Below, one piece after another: positions 25,574 to 34,308 of a DNA stretch of 64,000 nt. Position numbers and translations under genes: made by a program. The notes under the pieces are model-generated. The model was given only the letters and a program-made list of their open reading frames with translations. It had not been told where the DNA came from and made no database searches. Position 1 is the first letter of the stretch. Each line of letters opens with the position of its first letter. The stretch is from an uncultured Planctomycetaceae bacterium (GTDB taxonomy: Bacteria > Planctomycetota > Planctomycetia > Planctomycetales > Planctomycetaceae), in NCBI GenBank assembly GCA_963813715.1, contig CAWFAK010000007.1, forward strand, positions 992,001 through 1,056,000. The letters run 5' to 3'.

Positions 25574-27645
25574 GTGGCCTTTCTGGTTTCTCAAAAACGC
25601 GGCGATCGCCTCGGGACGTCCCAAACCGGGCAACTGGCCGTCGAGCACATTCCTGGATTAACGAAGCTGTGGGCCGCGACCAGCGGCGCCCCCGAAATTC
25701 ATGTCGCGATCTTGGATGCGCCGGTCGATCGGGCCAATCCCTGCCTGGCAGCCGCGAGGATCGATCAAGCCTGGTTGGGAGAGCAGACGCACTGCTCTTC
25801 GCACGGAACCGAAGTCGCCAGCGTGATCTTCGGGCAGCACGACTCGGCCGTGCGGGGAATCGCGCCGGGCTGTCGCGGAATCAGCATTCCCATTTACAAG
25901 TGCGATCCCGTTCGCTCTCCCGCGACGAATCAAGTGCAACTGGCTCGCGCGATTCATGAAGCCCTGGCGGCCGGCGGCGCACGTCATCAACGTGAGCGCC
26001 GGACAGTTGGTTCCCTCTGGCATCGCGGAGCCCGAGTTAGCGGCAGCCGTCCGCGCCTGTGCTTCGGCCGGAGTTCTGATCATCGCCGCCGTCGGAAACG
26101 ACGGTTGCGACTGCCTGCATGTGCCGGCCGCACTCCCCTGTGTTCTGGCCGTCGGCGCCATGCGATGGGACGGCAGCCCGGTGCCGGGCAGCAACTGGGG
26201 ATCCATTTACCAAACGCAGGGAATTTTGGCCCCAGGTGAGAACATCGACGTCTGCGGTGCGAACGGACAGCCGATGTCGCGGACGGGATCGAGCTACGCG
26301 ACGGCCATCGTCGCCGGCGTGGCGGCCTTGCTGCTCAGCCGAGAACTCAAACTGGGGCGTTCTCTCCGACCACTTCTTGTTCGCAAGGCCCTGCTAAGCG
26401 CAGCCGACCGATTGGCTCGTGCATCCGCCGACGAAAGGCACCGTTTTCTCGCTGGTCGTTTAGATATTACGGCAACAACGATCTTCCTCGACACCTGGAG
26501 CAACACCATGTCCGATAGCATGAATCTCGACCTGCCCGGTGAAGGCATCTCCGACGGAGGCGCCCCGTGCGACGCCGTGCCCGTCAGTATCCAGCCCTCC
26601 GCCGAGCGAAACGTCGATCCTCCGCGGCTGACGCAGCCTGGCATCTTGCCGACGCAACCGGAACGCCAGGAACGACGCACGAACGCCGTCGAGCCCTCGG
26701 CATGCTCCAGCTGCCGCGGCGAACGTCAGTTGGTCTATGCCCTGGGACGATTGAACTACGACTTCGGCAGCGAGGCCGGCTTGGACGCATTTAAGCAGCG
26801 GATGCGCCATCTGCGACTTCCCGGATGCGATGATCCCAAAATCTTCTGGGAAAATGCGAACCCACTCGATGAACGGCAGTTGAAGATTTTCCTCGGCGCC
26901 ATTCCCGAACAGGAAGCAGATGCGTGGATCTCGGCCCTGCTTTGGACCTTGGAGGTCGGCGGATTGCCGCTCTACGTCATTCGGCCGGAAGGCCCACAAG
27001 CGTCGGTGGCCTACAGGAGCCTCAAGGATTATTACTTTGAGCAATTCCCAACGCACACGAAGCACGAAGAGGCGGAAAACAAGGGGGAACACCAGCACCA
27101 TCAGCAGGACCAACACCAGCAGCAAGCCCCACAAGAGTGCGCAATCGCCGAACAAGTTGGCGTTCCAGGTATCATCGCGGGCCAAGCAACGCTGCATAAC
27201 GGTCTGCGCGTGCCGGCGATCAACCCAGACCTACGGGCCCTCTGCAATTGGAATCGGCATTGTTTGGTCACACAAGTTTTGGGGGACGCACCGGATGCCG
27301 CGCTCAAAGAGTCGCTGGAGGAGTTCCTGGACCACCTCTACTTCGAGTTGCAGAATGCCGGCCTCACCTCGCGAGACCGATCCCTGAATTACGCGGCGAC
27401 CAACCTCGCCGAACCCAAGAAGATTTTCGTCAAAGAGCTCAAGAACAAACACTCACTGGATTCGATCGGCGCCGAGCGCAGCAAACTCTGTCGTCCCGGC
27501 TCCGATTGTTGGGACGTCACGCTGTCGTTCTTCGACCCGAAGAATCCGCTGCACACCGTGCGACTCGGTGCACCGTTACACCATCGATGTCAGCGAGGTG
27601 CTTCCCGTCACAGTCGGCGAGATCCGTTCCTGGAAGACTCGGTAA
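25574..27645 (+). CDS. PatA/PatG-family cyanobactin-type S8 protease with PatG_D/PatG_C-like C-terminal domains (frameshifts ~25975, ~27565)
   Basis: IPGLTKLWA, AILDAPVD (Asp), HGTEVAS (His), GNDGCDCLHVPAA, TGSSYAT (Ser); LVYALGRLNYDFGSEA; RDRSLNYAATN; CRPGSDCWDVTLSFFDP; TIDVSEVLPVTVGEIRSW. Confidence 0.9.
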
Positions 27646-27672
27646 CGAAACTTGCAAACTGACGGCTGAGGT

Positions 27673-27726: not shown

Positions 27727-28857
27727 CTACGGGAAGAGCTGCGCATACCGCTCGAGGCGATCCGAGCTCGCCAGGCGGCGGAAGATTTCGGGGAAAAGTG
27801 CCAGAGAAATCTGGCACTCCACCTCATCAATTCGCTCTAAGCCCGATCGGGCGAGACACGTGCCTCCGCAGAAGCTGCGCCAATCGCAGTTCTGGCAGGG
27901 ACTGAGACTGGCCGTCGAGCGGCCGCGGATCGTGTCGGCGATCGGGCTGTCGAGGGCGGCCGCGATTCCGTCGCGCTCCATGTGGCCCAACGAGAGGGTG
28001 CGGTCGCCGATGCAGTCGCACGACTCGATCGTCCCGTCGACGCTGATCGAAACGAGGTCCCGGGCCGCGCCGCAGCCATCGCGCAGACACATGCTCCGCC
28101 GATCGCCCGAGAGGACGTTGCGCAGATAGCGCAAAACCGGCGCGACGGTCATCTGGTCGAACTCGCCGGCCTCCACCGCGTCGAAGAGCTCGAAATACGA
28201 TTGGATGACGACGTCGGTGTCGGGAGCAAAATGGGGCATCTGTGTCGCGCGGCCGAGCGGCTGGAAGAGCGTTGCGTCCCAGTGCTTGATGCCGAGGTCG
28301 CGCATGTAGCGGGCCGTCTCGAGCAGTCGGGCGGCGTTCGTGGACGTGACCGTCGTCAGCACGGCGACTTTGGCCAACAGGCGAGGGTTCGAGCGCAGAG
28401 CTTTTTCGATCTCGTCGAACCGTCCCCGTCCCGAGTGATCGACGCGGTGCCGATCGTTGAGGGCGGCCGGTCCGTCGAGGGAAACGCCGATCGAGACCCG
28501 GTTCTCGAGCAGGAAGTCGACGGTTGCCGGCGAGAAATGGCGGCCGTTGGTCTGCACCGAGAAGCGGACCTCGCGTTCTGCCGCGCGGGCGGCTTCGCAC
28601 GCGAAGGGAACGAGCGCGCGGATCTGATCGATGGCCAGAAGCGGTTCGCCGCCATGAAACAAGATTTTGAGGACGGGGCCGGAGCGGGCCAGCGAATCGA
28701 CGATCGCCTTTCGGGCGACCTCGTCCGACAGGCGACGTGAATAGTTCTCGGCCCGAAAGTCGTAGCAATAGTCGCAGGCCAGATCGCAGAAACCGACGAG
28801 CTTGAGGATCAGCGTGTTGAGCGAGCCCGATCCCGCGTTCAATGAACCCGGACGCAC
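27727..28857 (-). CDS. Radical SAM/SPASM-domain protein, probable peptide maturase
   Basis: CDLACDYC, FHGGEPLL, QTNG, GVSLDGP...DRHR; SPASM cysteines MCLRDGCGAAR...ESCDC...CQNCDWRSFCGGTC...EC. Confidence 0.92.
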   Translation of the reverse strand: MRPGSLNAGSGSLNTLILKLVGFCDLACDYCYDFRAENYSRRLSDEVARKAIVDSLARSGPVLKILFHGGEPLLAIDQIRALVPFACEAARAAEREVRFSVQTNGRHFSPATVDFLLENRVSIGVSLDGPAALNDRHRVDHSGRGRFDEIEKALRSNPRLLAKVAVLTTVTSTNAARLLETARYMRDLGIKHWDATLFQPLGRATQMPHFAPDTDVVIQSYFELFDAVEAGEFDQMTVAPVLRYLRNVLSGDRRSMCLRDGCGAARDLVSISVDGTIESCDCIGDRTLSLGHMERDGIAAALDSPIADTIRGRSTASLSPCQNCDWRSFCGGTCLARSGLERIDEVECQISLALFPEIFRRLASSDRLERYAQLFP

Positions 28858-28878: not shown

Positions 28879-29178
28879 CTATTGGTCCCGAATCAATCCC
28901 GAGTTTCGCAGGGGATCGAAGAGCGGCGATCGCTCGAGCGCAGGGTCCTCGAAGCCGCTCGACTCGCAGGCGTCGAGAAATTCTTGGACCGCGCCCACTG
29001 ACTGGACCCTGACCATCACCCAGCTGCCGCTGGGCGGGTGGAGCAAGAGGGCAAGCTCGTCGCTCAGGCGGCGCTCGCGAATCGGGCGCAGAACGCGATA
29101 TCGCGGCGGGGCACCCAGCACGGGAAGCGGCGACAACGAGGGCATCGCAATCGTCCCCAGTCCTGACTCAGTGCTCAT
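28879..29178 (-). CDS. Putative RRE/PqqD-like protein (may be the N-terminal domain of the radical SAM enzyme)
   Basis: 99 aa; three strand-like segments, then helices ending LRNSGLI. ATG overlaps the upstream stop (ATGA). In frame with the rSAM gene across one TAG. Confidence 0.6.
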   Translation of the reverse strand: MSTESGLGTIAMPSLSPLPVLGAPPRYRVLRPIRERRLSDELALLLHPPSGSWVMVRVQSVGAVQEFLDACESSGFEDPALERSPLFDPLRNSGLIRDQ

Positions 29179-29450
29179 TCCTGGTCGACGTTCTTCATCC
29201 AAATCGACATGAAAGAGAGCCCTTGCGGAACCGCGCTGGCTTTCACAATGGCGATTTCCTTGACGTCAAACTTAGACGTCGCGGCAGAAGTTAACCGGCC
29301 GATTCCGTGGAGCACATCGCGACTCACATCGTCGGCGATCGCGTCCGGGACGATGATCGTGACATTGTCGTCTGTGCTCGGACTCACGGTGTCGAGCGAT
29401 GTCTTCTTGTCTTTTTTCCCCTTTTTGCCCTTCTTTTTCTTTTTCGACAT
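29175..29450 (-). CDS. Lys-rich small protein P1 (91 aa), putative RiPP precursor
   Basis: GAAAGGG RBS; MSKKKKKGKKGKKDKK...VTIIVPDAI...FDVKEI...GLSFMSIWMKNVDQE. Translationally coupled to the RRE-like gene. Confidence 0.75.
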   Translation of the reverse strand: MSKKKKKGKKGKKDKKTSLDTVSPSTDDNVTIIVPDAIADDVSRDVLHGIGRLTSAATSKFDVKEIAIVKASAVPQGLSFMSIWMKNVDQE

Positions 29451-29460
29451 GCGAGGCCCT

Positions 29461-29527
29461 TTCCCGGTTGTGGAGCCTGGTCGTTGAACCTGGTTGCGGA
29501 CTCTGGTTGTCGGACCTCCGTTGTCGT
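29461..29527 (-). repeat. Five degenerate 12-14 nt tandem repeats (consensus ~CCGACAACCAGRGT)
   Basis: Minus strand: ACGACAACGGAGGT CCGACAACCAGAGT CCGCAACCAGGT TCAACGACCAGGCT CCACAACCGGGAA. Confidence 0.6.
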
Positions 29528-29563
29528 GTTCTCTCCATTAAACGCGAGTTGCCTGCCCCGATG

Positions 29564-31862
29564 CTAAGGGGATTTTGCGGCGGATGCCAGCATTGTTTTG
29601 GCCTCATTGTCGAGGCCGGTCAGCTGGCCCGGGGTGAGATGCTCCTTTTGTTTCCAGGCTTCGGCCTTCCGATAGAACTCTTCGGCCCGCGGTTTGTCGC
29701 CGAGCTTCCACCAGGCCATGGCCGCGTAGTACCAATCGAAGCCGTCGCCGCCATCCCGCAGGATCATCGACTCGTCGAGCGAAGCGACGGCCGACCGAAA
29801 ATCGCCCGCCCGGTATTGGGCGACACCCAACGTGTTCCAGTAATTGGCATTTCGCGGCGACATGTCGACCGCCTTGTGCGCGAGGGCGATCGCTTTTTCC
29901 GGATTCCGGATCTTCGGATCGCGATTGTTCGCGAAGACCCAGGCCATCCAGGCGTGCGGATCGGGGTTGGTCGGATCGACCTCGGCGGCGCGCTGGAGCC
30001 ATTCCAGCTCGTGTGGAACGTCGGACCTGAGTTCGTACTTCGTGCCGCACTCGGTGCAATAAAGCGAGAGTTCGCGCTTGTATTGAGAGTTTTCGGGATG
30101 CCGCTCGACGAGGCGTTTGCTGATTTCGATCGACTTGCCGATCGAGCGGAGCGAGGCTTCGATGTCGCTGAGGCGCGGACTCGGCGCCGGACACGTAGTA
30201 GTGAAGGCCGGCAAGATCGTGCGAAAAACCGGCGACGTCGGGATATTGGTCAGCCAAATCCTGCCAGACGTCGCGACTACGCTGCAGAAGCTCCACTCCG
30301 TCGCTGCGGATTCGACGGGCCGCTCGATTTGCGGTTCACATAGTGCGGAAAGCGAAACAGCCCTCCCCTCAGAGGTTCGAGGTCCGCCAGGCCGGCCCCT
30401 TGTTGCCGCAATTTCTCCAGACCGGCGAGGCCCTGTTCCATCTCGGTCTGGGCCTCGTCGGGCTCGCCGTTGACGAGATGTAACTGCCAAAGACGAAAGT
30501 GCGTGGCCGCGACCTCGGCCGCCAGAGCCGGACTCTCGGCGTTTTGAGCGAGAAACTTCTGATAATAGTCCATCGCCGTCGAGACCAGCTCGCGGCGTAG
30601 CGGCTGCACTCCCGGCTCGTCGAGCAAGGGATTGTCGCTGATCGCGGCGAAGTCATCGACCGCGTGTCGGGCCGCCTGCAGGTTAGTCTCGGCATCGACG
30701 CGAGCGTCGCGCTCGCGATCGCGGGCAGCGGCGATCGTCAACGCATCGTACGTCATCACAATGGCAAGCGAGATCGGAACGAACAGAGCCAGGCCGATCG
30801 CCGCAGCCTGCCATGGCTTCCGCTGACACCAGCGCCAAATCCGCTTGGGCCGGCTGGTCCTGCGAGCATAGATCGGTTCCAACCGCAGCCAGCGGTGCAA
30901 ATCATCGGCGAATTCCTGCGCCGTCTGGTAACGGCGAGAGCGTCCTTGTCGATCGCCTTGAGGCAGATCGTCTCCAGGTCGGCCGGGATATAGTTGTTGA
31001 AACTGCGGGGGTTGCGGGGCTCTTCGTTCATCACCCGCTGGATCAGCATCTGGATGTTGCCCCCGAACGGCCGCTCCCCCGTCAACAGCTCAAAGAGCAC
31101 GATGCCCAAGCTGTAGATGTCGCTGCGGCGATCGAGTTCGTGCGAGTTGCCGGCCGCCTGCTCGGGGCTCATGTAGGCCGGCGTTCCGAGAATCTGCCCC
31201 TCCATCGTCAGCGTGACATCGCACTCGGGCCGCAGCGCCAGTCCAAAATCCAGAATTCGCGGCCGGGCGTTCTGGTCAATGATGATGTTCGACGGCTTGA
31301 TGTCGCGATGGACGACGTTGCGCTGGTGGGCGTACTCGAGTCCCTCGGCAACCGCCGCCACAAGCAGCGCCGACTCGCGAAGGGCAAAACGCCGCTGGTT
31401 CATCAGCTTGTCGAGCGATGACCCCAGGACCAGTTCGCTCACAATGCAGGTGCGACCGTCGACCTTGCAAAGATCGAAGATCGGCACGATGGCCGGATGG
31501 TGCAGCTGGGAGGCGCTGCGTGCTTCGCGGGTGAATCGTTGGAATTCGGTCGCGGTCTCCGGGAGCTCTCGTCGCGGCACTTTGAGGGCCACCATCCGGT
31601 CGAGATCCGGGTCGTAGGCCGCGAATACGGTGCCGAAGCCGCCTCGCCCGATCCGATTGATAACCCGAAATCGCCCGACGTTTTTCAGCTCGTCACCAGG
31701 CGACGCGGGCCCTGCGAACTCGGCTGGAACCGGGCCGGTTGGGGCGGTCACATCCTGCTGGAATGCGATGGTCAGGTCGCACTTGGGACAGCGGCTGACC
31801 TGGCCGAATCCCTCCGACGGGATCTCCAGGGGGCTCAAGCACCTGGGGCAGAGCGCTTGCAT
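29564..31862 (-). CDS. Ser/Thr kinase with N-terminal Zn ribbon, TM segment and C-terminal TPRs (frameshifts ~30940, ~30290, ~30190)
   Basis: CPRC...[53 protein letters not shown]. Confidence 0.88.
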
Positions 31863-32313
31863 CAATCTCTCCAGCGGTGAATGGTCGCGCCGACCAAAAG
31901 GCGACGTTCACAATCAGGAGCGAGCGAGATGGTTTTTGCTGCCAGCGGAATGCGTTCGCGTGGCCGTCGAATGCCGCTCTGAGGATTGACGTGCCGGGAG
32001 AGGCGCCCGGGCGGCAAACGAGGATCACTTCAAAGGAAGCACCTTGTGCGGCGCGCCGCCGCAACAGCAGGAGTCAGCATAGCCAGATTGCGGTCGCCCA
32101 TTCCAGTCCCGTCAGCCGACAGGGGCGAATGCGCAGGATTCAGGCCGAAGGACTCGCCTCGCTTCACGTCTTTTTTCGCAAATCGGCGCTCGATCTTGTT
32201 CTCACGGCGCGATAGAACGAAACACGACACCAATGGATCTGACGAGTGGAGGAAAGGAGCATTTCACCCCGAGAATTATTTCACGACCTTCAACTGCAGT
32301 GAAAGGCCCAGCG

Positions 32314-32538
32314 ATGGCAAAGAGAAAGGCGGCATCGAAAAAGGCGGCGGCACCAAAGAACCCAAAAGCGGTCACGGCCCTGCCCCAGGACGTGGTCTTA
32401 GTCTACGTTCCCGACGCGATCTACAATCTCGGCGGCAACATGCAGCAGATGATCGGCGCGATGAACTCTCTCTGGGCCAAATCGTTCGGCGTAAAGCACG
32501 TGTGGGTGGATAACAACAGTACCTGGCCCAACCTGTAG
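32314..32538 (+). CDS. Lys-rich, Trp-rich small protein P2 (74 aa), paralog of P1
   Basis: GAAAGG RBS; MAKRKAASKK...DVVLVYVPDAI...IGAMNSLWAKSFGVKHVWVDNNSTWPNL. Confidence 0.75.
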   Translation: MAKRKAASKKAAAPKNPKAVTALPQDVVLVYVPDAIYNLGGNMQQMIGAMNSLWAKSFGVKHVWVDNNSTWPNL

Positions 32539-32625
32539 TTGCGCACGTCACGCGTGCGTTCTTCGCACACCCCCGCAAAGATTTGACAGCCGCAAGTCAC
32601 CCGTGGATGATGGCTCGGGTGCAGT

Positions 32626-34308
32626 TTGCCTCTGCCTCCGAGCCTTCATTTGCCGGGAGCGGCGACCATTCAATCCAACCGTCGAGGATTCTTGCAGAGC
32701 AGTTTGCTGGGTGCGGCGGCCGCGTTGCCGCTGGGCGCCTCGGCCGAGACGAAGGGCGGAGCGAGTCGCCCAGCGGACAAGTCGGCCGACCGTGTCGAGC
32801 CCTTCGAGTTGGACGAGCTGACGATCGCCGATTTGCAGCAGGCGATGCAATCCGGCAAAGAGAGCGCGCGTTCGCTCGTCAAGAAATACCAGGCGCGAAT
32901 CGAGGCCGTCGACCGCAAAGGCCCCGCGCTCAACAGCGTGATCGAAGTCAATCCGGACGCGCTCGAGATCGCCGAGGCGCTCGACCGGGAACGCTCGGCG
33001 AAGGGAGCGCGGGGTCCGCTGCACGGAATTCCCGTCCTGATCAAGGACAATATCGACACCGCGGATCGGATGCATACGACCGCGGGCTCGCTCGCGCTCG
33101 TCGACGCCCGTCCGCCGGAGGATGCGTTTCTCGTGCGGCGTCTGCGCGAAGCCGGCGCCGTCATCCTGGGCAAAACGAACCTGAGCGAGTGGGCCAACAT
33201 CCGCTGTAGCTATTCGACCAGCGGTTGGAGCGGCCGCGGCGGGCTGACCAAGAATCCCTACGCGCTCGACCGCAATCCGTGCGGGTCGAGCTCCGGCTCC
33301 GGAGCGGCCGTGGCCGCCAGTCTGTGTGCCGTGGCTGTCGGGACCGAAACCGATGGATCGGTCGTCAGCCCCTCCTCGGCCAACGGTATCGTCGGCATGA
33401 AGCCGACGGTCGGCCTGGTGAGTCGCACCGGTGTGATTCCCATTTCCTACTCGCAAGACACGGCCGGCCCGATGTGCCGCACCGTCCGCGACGTGGCCAT
33501 TCTGCTCGGCGCACTGGCCGGCAGCGATCCGGCCGACAAGGCGACCACGGACGACAAGCGCAAGGCTCTGGCCGACTACTCGAAGGCTCTCGATCCTCGC
33601 GGTCTCAAGGGAGCGAGGATCGGCGTCGCGCGGAACTATTTTGGTTTCGACGACACGGTGGACGCGGTCCTCGGCCACTCGCTCGATGCCCTGAAACACG
33701 AAGGCGCGACGCTCGTCGATCCGGCCGAGATTCCCAACATGGATAAGGTCGGCGAATCGGAACTGACCGTCCACCTGTACGAGTTGAAGTCCGGCCTCGC
33801 CAACTATTTCGCCCGGCTCGGTAAGCACGCGCCGATGAAGTCCTTGAAAGACGTGATCGAATTCAACGAGAAGCACAAATCTCACGAGATGCCCTATTTC
33901 GGACAGGACTTGTTCGAGAAGTCGGTGAAGAAGGGCTCGCTGCAAAGCTACGAATATCAGGAGGCCCTGGCCCGCTGCCGCCGCCTGGCGCGCACCGAGG
34001 GGATCGACGCGACGATGGACAAGTTCAAGCTCGATGCGTTCGTCGCGCCGACGCTCGGACCGGCCTGCCTCACCGACCTGGTCGTCGGCGATCGCTGGCG
34101 TGGCGAGGCGTCGACGGCGGCCGCGGTTTCCGGTTACCCGAGCATTACCGTCCCGGCGGGATTTATCTTCGGCTTGCCGATCGGCCTGCTCTTTTTCGGC
34201 CGGGCCTGGAGCGAAGCGACGCTCCTCAAGCTGGCGTACGCCTTCGAGCAAGCGACCAAAATCCGCAAGCCCCCGCGGTTCTTGCCCTCGGCCGAGCTGA
34301 CCGCCTAA
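32626..34308 (+). CDS. Amidase-signature family enzyme with Tat-like signal (start uncertain)
   Basis: SNRRGFLQ; GPLHGIPVLIKDNI, GKTNLSEWAN, GSSSGS, GTETDGSVVSPS. Confidence 0.92.
   Translation: MPLPPSLHLPGAATIQSNRRGFLQSSLLGAAAALPLGASAETKGGASRPADKSADRVEPFELDELTIADLQQAMQSGKESARSLVKKYQARIEAVDRKGPALNSVIEVNPDALEIAEALDRERSAKGARGPLHGIPVLIKDNIDTADRMHTTAGSLALVDARPPEDAFLVRRLREAGAVILGKTNLSEWANIRCSYSTSGWSGRGGLTKNPYALDRNPCGSSSGSGAAVAASLCAVAVGTETDGSVVSPSSANGIVGMKPTVGLVSRTGVIPISYSQDTAGPMCRTVRDVAILLGALAGSDPADKATTDDKRKALADYSKALDPRGLKGARIGVARNYFGFDDTVDAVLGHSLDALKHEGATLVDPAEIPNMDKVGESELTVHLYELKSGLANYFARLGKHAPMKSLKDVIEFNEKHKSHEMPYFGQDLFEKSVKKGSLQSYEYQEALARCRRLARTEGIDATMDKFKLDAFVAPTLGPACLTDLVVGDRWRGEASTAAAVSGYPSITVPAGFIFGLPIGLLFFGRAWSEATLLKLAYAFEQATKIRKPPRFLPSAELTA

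Follow-up and report, generated by a model that had tools for sequence, protein, structure and literature searches.

The described systems closest to the locus analyzed here are those of the cyclophane-type RiPPs (peptides that are made on ribosomes and modified after translation), in which a small gene lies beside the gene for an enzyme that is of the radical S-adenosylmethionine (rSAM) type and has a SPASM domain, as in WprA/WprB (motif W-P-R), WgkA/WgkB (W-G-K) and DarA/DarE (W-x-K in darobactin). A passage of the WprB paper refers to a family of precursors that have 'a single WxR/K motif' (PMC11851443), and a passage of the DarE paper places the link between C6 of W3 and the beta carbon of K5 (PMC9055067). 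The same gene arrangement is found in a 64,000-nucleotide stretch of contig CAWFAK010000007.1 from an uncultured Planctomycetaceae bacterium (assembly GCA_963813715.1, positions 992,001 to 1,056,000; hereinafter, the window). Here P1 (29175..29450, minus strand), a protein of 91 amino acids, is encoded next to an rSAM/SPASM enzyme and, along with other tailed members of its family, resembles the cyclophane precursors in carrying a three-residue Trp-x-basic motif near the C-terminus. The subject of this analysis is P2 (32314..32538, plus strand), a protein of 74 amino acids encoded on the far side of a receptor-type Ser/Thr kinase gene. P2 is a conserved domain paralog that lacks the tail, in a kinase-coupled family of W-x-K precursors for which there has been no model so far. 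Our search of the literature on rSAM/SPASM precursors of Planctomycetes found no description of this family, which is no proof that none exists.

P2 and its small-protein family

P2 (tail-less, D-type) consists of a Lys/Ala/Pro-rich N-terminal tail (residues 1-24), a beta-alpha-beta domain (27-67) and a C-terminal S-T-W-P-N-L, and P1 (tailed, A-type) has the same domain followed by a C-terminal tail with the invariant W84-x-K86. The single-gap alignment of the two proteins put forward in the original prediction is reproduced by BLASTP (15 of 49 residues identical, E 2e-5). The shuffle check named there beforehand, including the masking of Lys tracts, is significant: the local-alignment score of the pair was reached in none of 5000 shuffles of the whole proteins and in one of 5000 with the Lys tracts removed. 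Comparison of 13 P1-type with 7 P2-type sequences by hhalign yields a probability of 97.6% (E 3.2e-12, 67 columns). As judged from these alignments, P1 and P2 are homologous.

The two proteins also define a small-protein family, as had been proposed, which is represented by 46 proteins in a search with the family profile and has no Pfam or NCBIfam model. Specifically, P1 shows no Pfam match at E<=0.01 and no NCBIfam match at E<=1; P2 shows no Pfam match, and its sole NCBIfam match, with a phosphopantetheinyl transferase model, is at chance level (E 0.13; 12.6 bits, cut-off 150); and PDB sequence profiles give nothing beyond chance-level rows for either type. A full HMMER search with P1 returned 12 proteins, of which one, P0013 (2131 amino acids), is a Big_12 Ig-repeat protein and was dropped as spurious. 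No fused form of the domain was found among longer proteins, which is weak evidence. Two features characterize the family: the polycationic start M-[AGST]-K-x-K, which as a regular expression matches family members only across the window and 10 loci, and P33, in the V-P-D strand region, which is nearly invariant across 49 family sequences. The length of the basic tail is highly variable, as indicated by the G007 member (L037:5889-6209), in which an Ala/Pro/Lys-rich N-terminal tail extends over about 45 residues; the same protein ends in W-I-W-D-K-F-C.

In the family tree, which is unrooted and was built from 49 rows and 86 columns, the P2-type proteins form a single split with support of 100/99 and a branch length of 1.65. 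Accordingly, by its position in this tree, the P2 type is an old subfamily and not a recent copy of the adjoining P1. The absence of the P1 tail from P2, which had been noted for the window alone, is thus a state conserved in a separate clade. Including P2, ten distinct P2-type proteins are on record, all of them intact, 66-77 residues long and, for those other than P2, 42-99% identical to it; the residues invariant specifically in this subfamily include N38, L39, N51, W54, F58, G59, V60 and P72. Their C-termini lie 2-7 residues past strand 2, the exception being P0041, in which about 21 residues follow that have no W-x-K; the C-terminal W-x-K tail that marks the rSAM-linked subfamilies is found in none of them.

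The open reading frame of P2 lies within a longer frame (32233..32538), and the sequence places its start at the ATG at 32314 because all homologues begin with MAK[KR]K and the upstream ATG at 32233 is ACG in two close relatives. The Lys-rich N-terminus (MAKRKAASKK in P2) is upheld as a shared trait. P2 is a real gene, given its intact homologues, a coding-like GC content at third codon positions (GC3), a start block common to the family, and domain codons that are identical to those of the sister species G002 against a diverged spacer. The GC3 is 0.78 in the P2 frame and 0.84 in the domain part, compared with 0.55 and 0.42 in the overlapping frames and 0.82 in the neighboring enzymes. Relative to G002, 4 of the 225 bases of P2 differ, all within codons 4-24, and codons 25-74 are identical at the nucleotide level, whereas the spacer between the kinase gene and P2 matches in 413 of 452 aligned columns. 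The start block extends over about 30 nucleotides 5' of the ATG (..CAAC..TGAAAGG(G)CC..ATG) and is common to all 12 family genes that were aligned. It contains the Shine-Dalgarno-like GAAAGG, at 32301..32306 (plus strand) for P2 and at 29463..29458 (minus strand) for P1, in both cases 7 nucleotides before the ATG, so that the ribosome-binding site originally noticed in these two genes is a property of all the family genes aligned.

The three W-x-[K/D/N] motifs to which P2 owed its description as Trp-rich, WAK, WVD and WPN, are all present in the window protein and are unequally conserved among its relatives. W54 is found in all ten P2-type proteins and W-[AS]-K in nine, the tenth being the G010 protein with W-A-V. 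The Trp of WVD is found in 5 of 10, and near the C-terminal end W-P is present in 8 and W-P-N in 6. P0028 and P0030 stop at W-P, an ending seen in three members of the P0030 cluster, on 11 contigs. The G010 protein, the most distant one with a known genomic context, contains W-A-V and L-P-K and has no W-x-K at all.

In the AlphaFold2 model of P2, calculated as a single monomer from the 49-sequence family alignment, a disordered basic tail is followed by a strand (27-32), a short helix (34-37), a long helix (43-58) and a second strand (62-67), with a mean predicted local distance difference test score (pLDDT) of 76 and values of 81-89 over residues 21-70. W54 and K56 are located inside the long helix (pLDDT about 89), where W54 would, in our reading of the model, fit the hydrophobic spacing M43/I47/M50/W54/F58; W64 is in strand 2 and W71 in the C-terminal end (pLDDT 64). 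Strand 2 is followed by a Ser in 9 of 10 P2-type proteins and in 32 of 40 other members. The strands of the P2-type proteins are hydrophobic on both faces (V-V-L-V-Y-V and V-W-V), compared with T-I-T-I-L-V and V-A-I-V in the tailed members, which fits a buried interface. Because one face of the strand-helix-strand unit would be open and greasy, it probably does not occur alone and should pair with a partner sheet. Structural searches with the P2 model gave no match in pdb at E<=0.001 with Foldseek and a best Z of 3.1 in a wide VIA search. The ESM Atlas contained no match above 0.76.

P2 looks monocistronic because a hairpin follows its stop codon and a promoter precedes the next gene, an amidase, neither signal being statistically strong. 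The hairpin (32541..32559, plus strand; 8 pairs and a 3-nucleotide loop, then TTCTTC) lies directly 3' of the stop, with a z of -1.31, short of significance; it is absent from the calls of the terminator scan, and, if it forms as modeled, it is possibly a weak terminator that separates P2 from the amidase gene. The promoter is a sigma-70-like element at 32583..32611. The region is represented in unstranded contigs of four metatranscriptomic libraries, in which DNA carry-over is possible; the depth is flat over all 3.6 kb, and one contig from run X5 spans 31745..32699, across P2. Upstream of P2, the 9-mer AACACGACA that had been pointed out as a further trait shared with P1 does occur at both places and nowhere else in the 64 kb (32221..32229, plus strand, 84 nucleotides before the P2 ATG; 29522..29530, minus strand, 71 nucleotides before the P1 ATG). 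The expected number of copies is 0.36, and at least two copies appear in 7 of 100 shuffles. This 9-mer carries little weight because it is absent upstream of family genes beyond the close relatives, having been kept only in near-identical ones. No other k-mer beyond the ribosome-binding block is common to the upstream regions of the family; those that recur fall in the end of the kinase coding sequence. A palindrome over the P2 ribosome-binding site was tried as a family element and rejected, as the other family genes do not share it. An Rfam search of 29400..32700 gave no match, and no conserved RNA structure was detected upstream of the family genes.

Tailed members and the genomic neighborhood

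The constant partner of the family is the kinase and not the rSAM enzyme: every full-length kinase orthologue is directly followed by a family member (12 of 12 loci, in 10 of the 12 genomes of the genus), against 9 of 12 kinase loci where the next gene encodes an rSAM/SPASM enzyme that is extended by about 100 residues at its N-terminus. Homologs are thus found near rSAM genes, as the original prediction would lead one to expect; its observation is confirmed and its interpretation partly supported, and the kinase as the constant neighbor had been overlooked. The P1 profile detects the family in 9 of the 12 genomes of the window's genus, with G007 added by hand, and in 2 of 401 genomes of a class-wide sample, where the second match is weak. 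The P2-type profile finds 5 of 398 Planctomycetaceae genomes, all in the window's genus, so that among the genomes searched the family is seen only in one Planctomycetaceae genus. In metagenomes, a scan with the Lys-tract pattern alone found nothing, and a second scan yielded 3 loci.

Two independent lineages reveal the genomic context of P2-type genes, namely the window type (G000, G002 and contig L034) and the G010 type (G010, L035 and L036). Both have the P2-type gene in divergent orientation next to the start of a kinase gene, this kinase gene is followed by an A-type tailed member, and an rSAM gene, in G010 a convergent neighbor, lies less than 4 kb away. In G010 (L010:4757-11932, and likewise L036), a double cassette combines three family members with a single rSAM gene: kinase2 is followed by a B-type precursor (WPK), the maturase and the P2-type gene, after which come kinase1, an A-type precursor (WHK) and two genes for dynamin-like GTPases. 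P2 is accessory, since G003, G006, G007 and G009 show no P2-type gene although their family gene has an rSAM gene after it; the same order without a visible P2-type gene is seen in G001, on a 4-kb contig that is too short to be judged.

The tailed members are characterized by the C-terminal W-x-K, which is located within the last 22 residues in 34 of the 47 non-P2 members. At every locus with context, the family gene directly upstream of the rSAM gene ends with this motif (WMK, WHK, WQK, WPK or WDK). The 13 non-P2 members without a terminal W-x-K comprise nine W-less proteins of the type present in G004 and G005, P0016 (W-R-A), P0029 (W-I-N), P0015 (W-Q-K further in) and one fragment. Given these endings upstream of rSAM genes and the overlap of the P1 stop with the start of the maturase extension, it is likely that the adjacent rSAM/SPASM enzyme has the tailed members, including P1, as its substrates. 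By analogy with the cyclophane systems, the chemistry is likely to be a three-residue Trp-to-Lys cross-link at W-x-K.

The W-less subfamily (...QPM[IVL]xSC) in G005 (L029:9945-13214) and G004 (L030:6630-9901) keeps the domain and has no rSAM gene; its gene lies between the kinase gene and genes for a Lip_A_acyltrans-like protein and an M48-like peptidase. This subfamily may mark another way in which the scaffold is matured. In the W-D-K-x-C subfamily (L028:9723-12417 and L031:8664-11364), the rSAM gene is followed by a Lip_A_acyltrans-like gene of the same kind. Three subfamilies have a C-terminal Cys (..QGC, ..KLC and ..VSC), which hints at a modification of this residue.

In the window, the kinase gene (29564..31865, minus strand) is divergent from P2 and upstream of P1. 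Its product, assigned with Pfam, comprises Zn-ribbon-like CxxC pairs, a kinase domain, one hydrophobic segment (about residues 352-374) and a TPR part that is probably outside the membrane. The gene reads in three frames in the window and is intact, at 766 amino acids, in the approximately 99% identical metagenome contig L034; contigs from the RNA libraries differ from the window by 1 nucleotide at 30175, 30294 and 30942, all within this gene. The TGA stop of P1 overlaps the ATG of the maturase N-terminal extension (28879..29178, minus strand) in an ATGA. The extension resembles a RiPP recognition element (RRE) by position only: Pfam, NCBIfam and PDB profiles gave no PqqD or RRE match, only chance-level rows. 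An in-frame TAG (28879..28881), in place of CTCACG in the near-identical L034, cuts it off from the rSAM part; in L034 the maturase is intact at 493 amino acids, and in six other loci the extension is fused to the rSAM domain. The radical SAM/SPASM peptide-maturase domain (27727..28857, minus strand; PF04055, 1.4e-14; PF13186, 3.5e-5) has CDLACDYC as its CxxxCxxC motif. In NCBIfam its best match, with 152 bits, is a PapB-like model whose cut-off is 340, and its scores with the cyclophane-synthase models are likewise below the cut-offs (YhhB 106/445, FxsB 105/370, GrrM 71/310, XyeB 62/450 and DynA 120/450). The best PDB profile match is 5wgg, with query position 104 aligned to chain position 89. 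Ahead of the point where the conserved extension begins, the maturase frames of G010 (L010:7857-9308) and G001 (L011:1079-2506) contain no ATG, GTG or TTG, the first such codon being 45 and 32 codons into the open frame, respectively, so that these enzymes may have an unusual start codon or a shortened extension.

Convergent with the rSAM gene is a gene for a PatA/PatG-like S8 protease (25574..27662, plus strand) with the Pfam domains PatG_D and PatG_C. It scores 401.1 bits with TIGR03895, short of the cut-off of 421.05, for the frame-shifted window copy; the gene reads in two frames here and is intact at 689 amino acids in L034. By tblastn, this protease is confined to the window-type loci L033 (G002) and L034, with none in ten other loci searched. 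The broken frames of the kinase, protease and maturase are probably assembly errors in the window, or strain lesions. On the other side, P2 is followed by the amidase gene (32626..34308, plus strand), whose product, in our reading of the sequence, seems to start with a twin-arginine-like signal (..SNRRGFLQSS..). The amidase is not counted in the system because it accompanies P2 in the window-type lineage only. PADLOC reported only generic kinase, rSAM and subtilase matches and no sign of a defense system.

Possible roles of P2

P2 keeps the family domain and has no core, and therefore most likely works in trans; the proposal that it is a core-less, trans-acting copy of the recognition domain of the family stands, in our estimate, at about an even chance. 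P2 would then be a functional, separately transcribed, tail-less member of a kinase-linked family of polycationic small proteins. The adjacent rSAM/SPASM enzyme would link the invariant Trp of the tailed members to the Lys two residues on, and P2, which retains the beta-alpha-beta domain that the partners must recognize and has no C-terminal core, would act through this domain as a competitor, an adaptor or a partner. The candidate partners are those that would recognize this domain in P1, namely the N-terminal extension of the maturase, the kinase, or P1 itself by strand pairing. P2 would yield no cross-linked peptide and would modulate P1 processing or kinase signaling.

Several observations weigh against this proposal. 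Action in trans is argued from anatomy, and the genomic context comes from only two independent lineages. The leader-binding domain of the maturase is putative, as no sequence method gives an RRE or PqqD match for the extension. The AlphaFold2 model of P2 is that of a lone monomer derived from 49 related sequences, and the ESMFold confidence for P2 in the Atlas is low (pLDDT 0.47). Furthermore, 9 of 10 P2-type proteins keep W-A-K, a form of the invariant motif in the cores of the tailed members, and its gain in a tail-less paralog could be a compensation, which points to a substrate role. Similarly, S-x-W-P is present in 8 of 10 of these proteins, in the lower-confidence and probably flexible end (pLDDT 64 in P2), and could represent a very short core.

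These motifs are the main attraction of the idea, already entertained in the original prediction, that P2 is a second substrate whose domain docks like that of P1 and in which the enzyme cross-links W54 to K56 (W-A-K) or cross-links W71 in S-T-W-P-N-L. The rSAM gene is less than 4 kb from P2 in both lineages, and several precursors are often present in one RiPP cluster. The invariant core motif of the tailed members is W-x-K, which P2-type proteins keep as W-[AS]-K in 9 of 10 cases along with the terminal W-P in 8 of 10, and passages of two papers give W-x-K, W-G-K and W-P-R as known three-residue motifs of rSAM cross-links (PMC11851443, PMC9055067). However, the G010 protein, with its W-A-V and L-P-K, has no such Trp motif, and W-P-N cannot be general given that P0028 and P0030 stop at W-P. 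In the model, moreover, W54 and K56 would lie within the confidently predicted helix, on its hydrophobic face, and the Trp is about 20 residues away from the VPD strand in P2, compared with about 49 in P1. P2 is also located outside the kinase-P1-maturase operon. What remains of the idea is the conservation of W-A-K and of S-x-W-P; WVD and WPN are mostly not conserved, and we consider a second substrate rather unlikely.

The synteny could also be taken to mean that P2 serves the kinase rather than the maturase, as a substrate, a pseudo-substrate or an adaptor, and that the whole family consists primarily of kinase partners. A family member follows the kinase at all 12 loci, compared with 9 for the rSAM gene; the W-less members of G004 and G005 keep the domain without any rSAM gene; P2-type genes abut the kinase start in both lineages; and the Ser after strand 2 is common in P2-type proteins and other members alike (9 of 10 and 32 of 40). 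Yet this adjacency would equally fit a kinase that senses or regulates the peptide and, given one membrane segment and a TPR part that is probably outside, a cytoplasmic P2 could come into contact with the kinase domain only. A phosphorylation motif was not identified, and this alternative overlaps with the trans-acting proposal, where the kinase is one of the possible partners; as an explanation of its own, it appears quite improbable. Still further down in probability, to the point that we hardly credit it, is the notion that P2 is a decaying, functionless relic of a precursor duplication. This notion would account for the lack of a core, for the absence of P2 from most genomes that have the cassette and for the low ESMFold confidence in the Atlas. 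It is contradicted by the ten distinct intact sequences in an old clade, by domain nucleotides identical to those of the sister species when the spacer matches in 413 of 452 columns, by the coding-like GC3 and the conserved start block, and by the invariant residues specific to the subfamily (N38 to P72, listed above).

A broader conjecture, which we regard as unlikely, is that the family primarily partners the receptor kinase in an undescribed peptide-signaling circuit of Planctomycetes, in which the outward TPR part of the kinase would sense the matured, co-encoded peptide and P2, as a stand-alone leader domain encoded next to the precursor, would tune the circuit by occupying the leader-binding site of the maturase or the kinase. 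On this conjecture, P2 would be a trans-leader or anti-leader with a gene of its own, and a present-day instance of the core-less form that gave rise to a protein-like leader. RiPP clusters are usually read as a precursor and its enzymes; a conserved core-less paralog would show that leader domains can have an independent life, as regulators, decoys or partners, and would offer a natural system for studying leader recognition in trans. The family as such, an unmodelled set of precursors with an invariant W-x-K and a strict coupling to a receptor Ser/Thr kinase, seen in a soil genus of uncultured Planctomycetaceae, suggests a cross-linked peptide that has not been described and possibly a circuit in which a kinase senses peptides.

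Comparison with known systems

Leaders of the NHLP and Nif11 type are comparable in being long, structured and homologous to core-less proteins, and P2 and P1 resemble such a pair. Nitrile hydratases and Nif11 proteins are described as 'retailored' into precursors in a passage of Haft et al. 2010 (PMC2887384), and structured leaders that engage enzymes are described in other work (PMC12537861; preprint 10.64898/2026.10.04.756588). In contrast to these leaders, P1 and P2 show no sequence relation to them by Pfam or NCBIfam, and the domain has only about 45 residues. The core-less form lies in the same locus here, and in the unrooted tree either form may be the ancestral one.

With regard to recognition by PqqD-like RREs, the maturase extension is about 100 residues long where 5wgg, which we take to be CteB with an RRE as its N-terminal part, has about 88 residues before the rSAM core. 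The extension gives no RRE or PqqD match by Pfam, NCBIfam or PDB profiles. A passage of a paper on RREs calls them 'structurally conserved but sequence-divergent' (PMC12710340).

The predicted P2 unit, a strand-helix-strand of about 50 residues, is also reminiscent of the 4-oxalocrotonate tautomerase (4-OT) family, beta-alpha-beta proteins that exist only as oligomers. Chains of 4-OT are among the tied weak structural matches of the P2 model (Z 2.5-3.0, root-mean-square deviation 3.0-3.6 A, 45-46 residues aligned). Given a Z far below the meaningful level, no sequence similarity, and no catalytic Pro1 in P2, the comparison is purely an illustration that a beta-alpha-beta unit would usually need a partner sheet.

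The closest likeness is, accordingly, to the cyclophane RiPPs, from which the locus differs in several respects. The window enzyme reaches no NCBIfam equivalog, and its cross-linking chemistry is putative; the leader joins a polycationic tail to a beta-alpha-beta domain that is predicted to fold; the constant neighbor is a receptor Ser/Thr kinase; and P2 is a family member without a C-terminal core. The locus falls in no modelled family that was examined and would, by analogy, function as one of the rSAM/SPASM cyclophane RiPP systems, its leader being protein-like.

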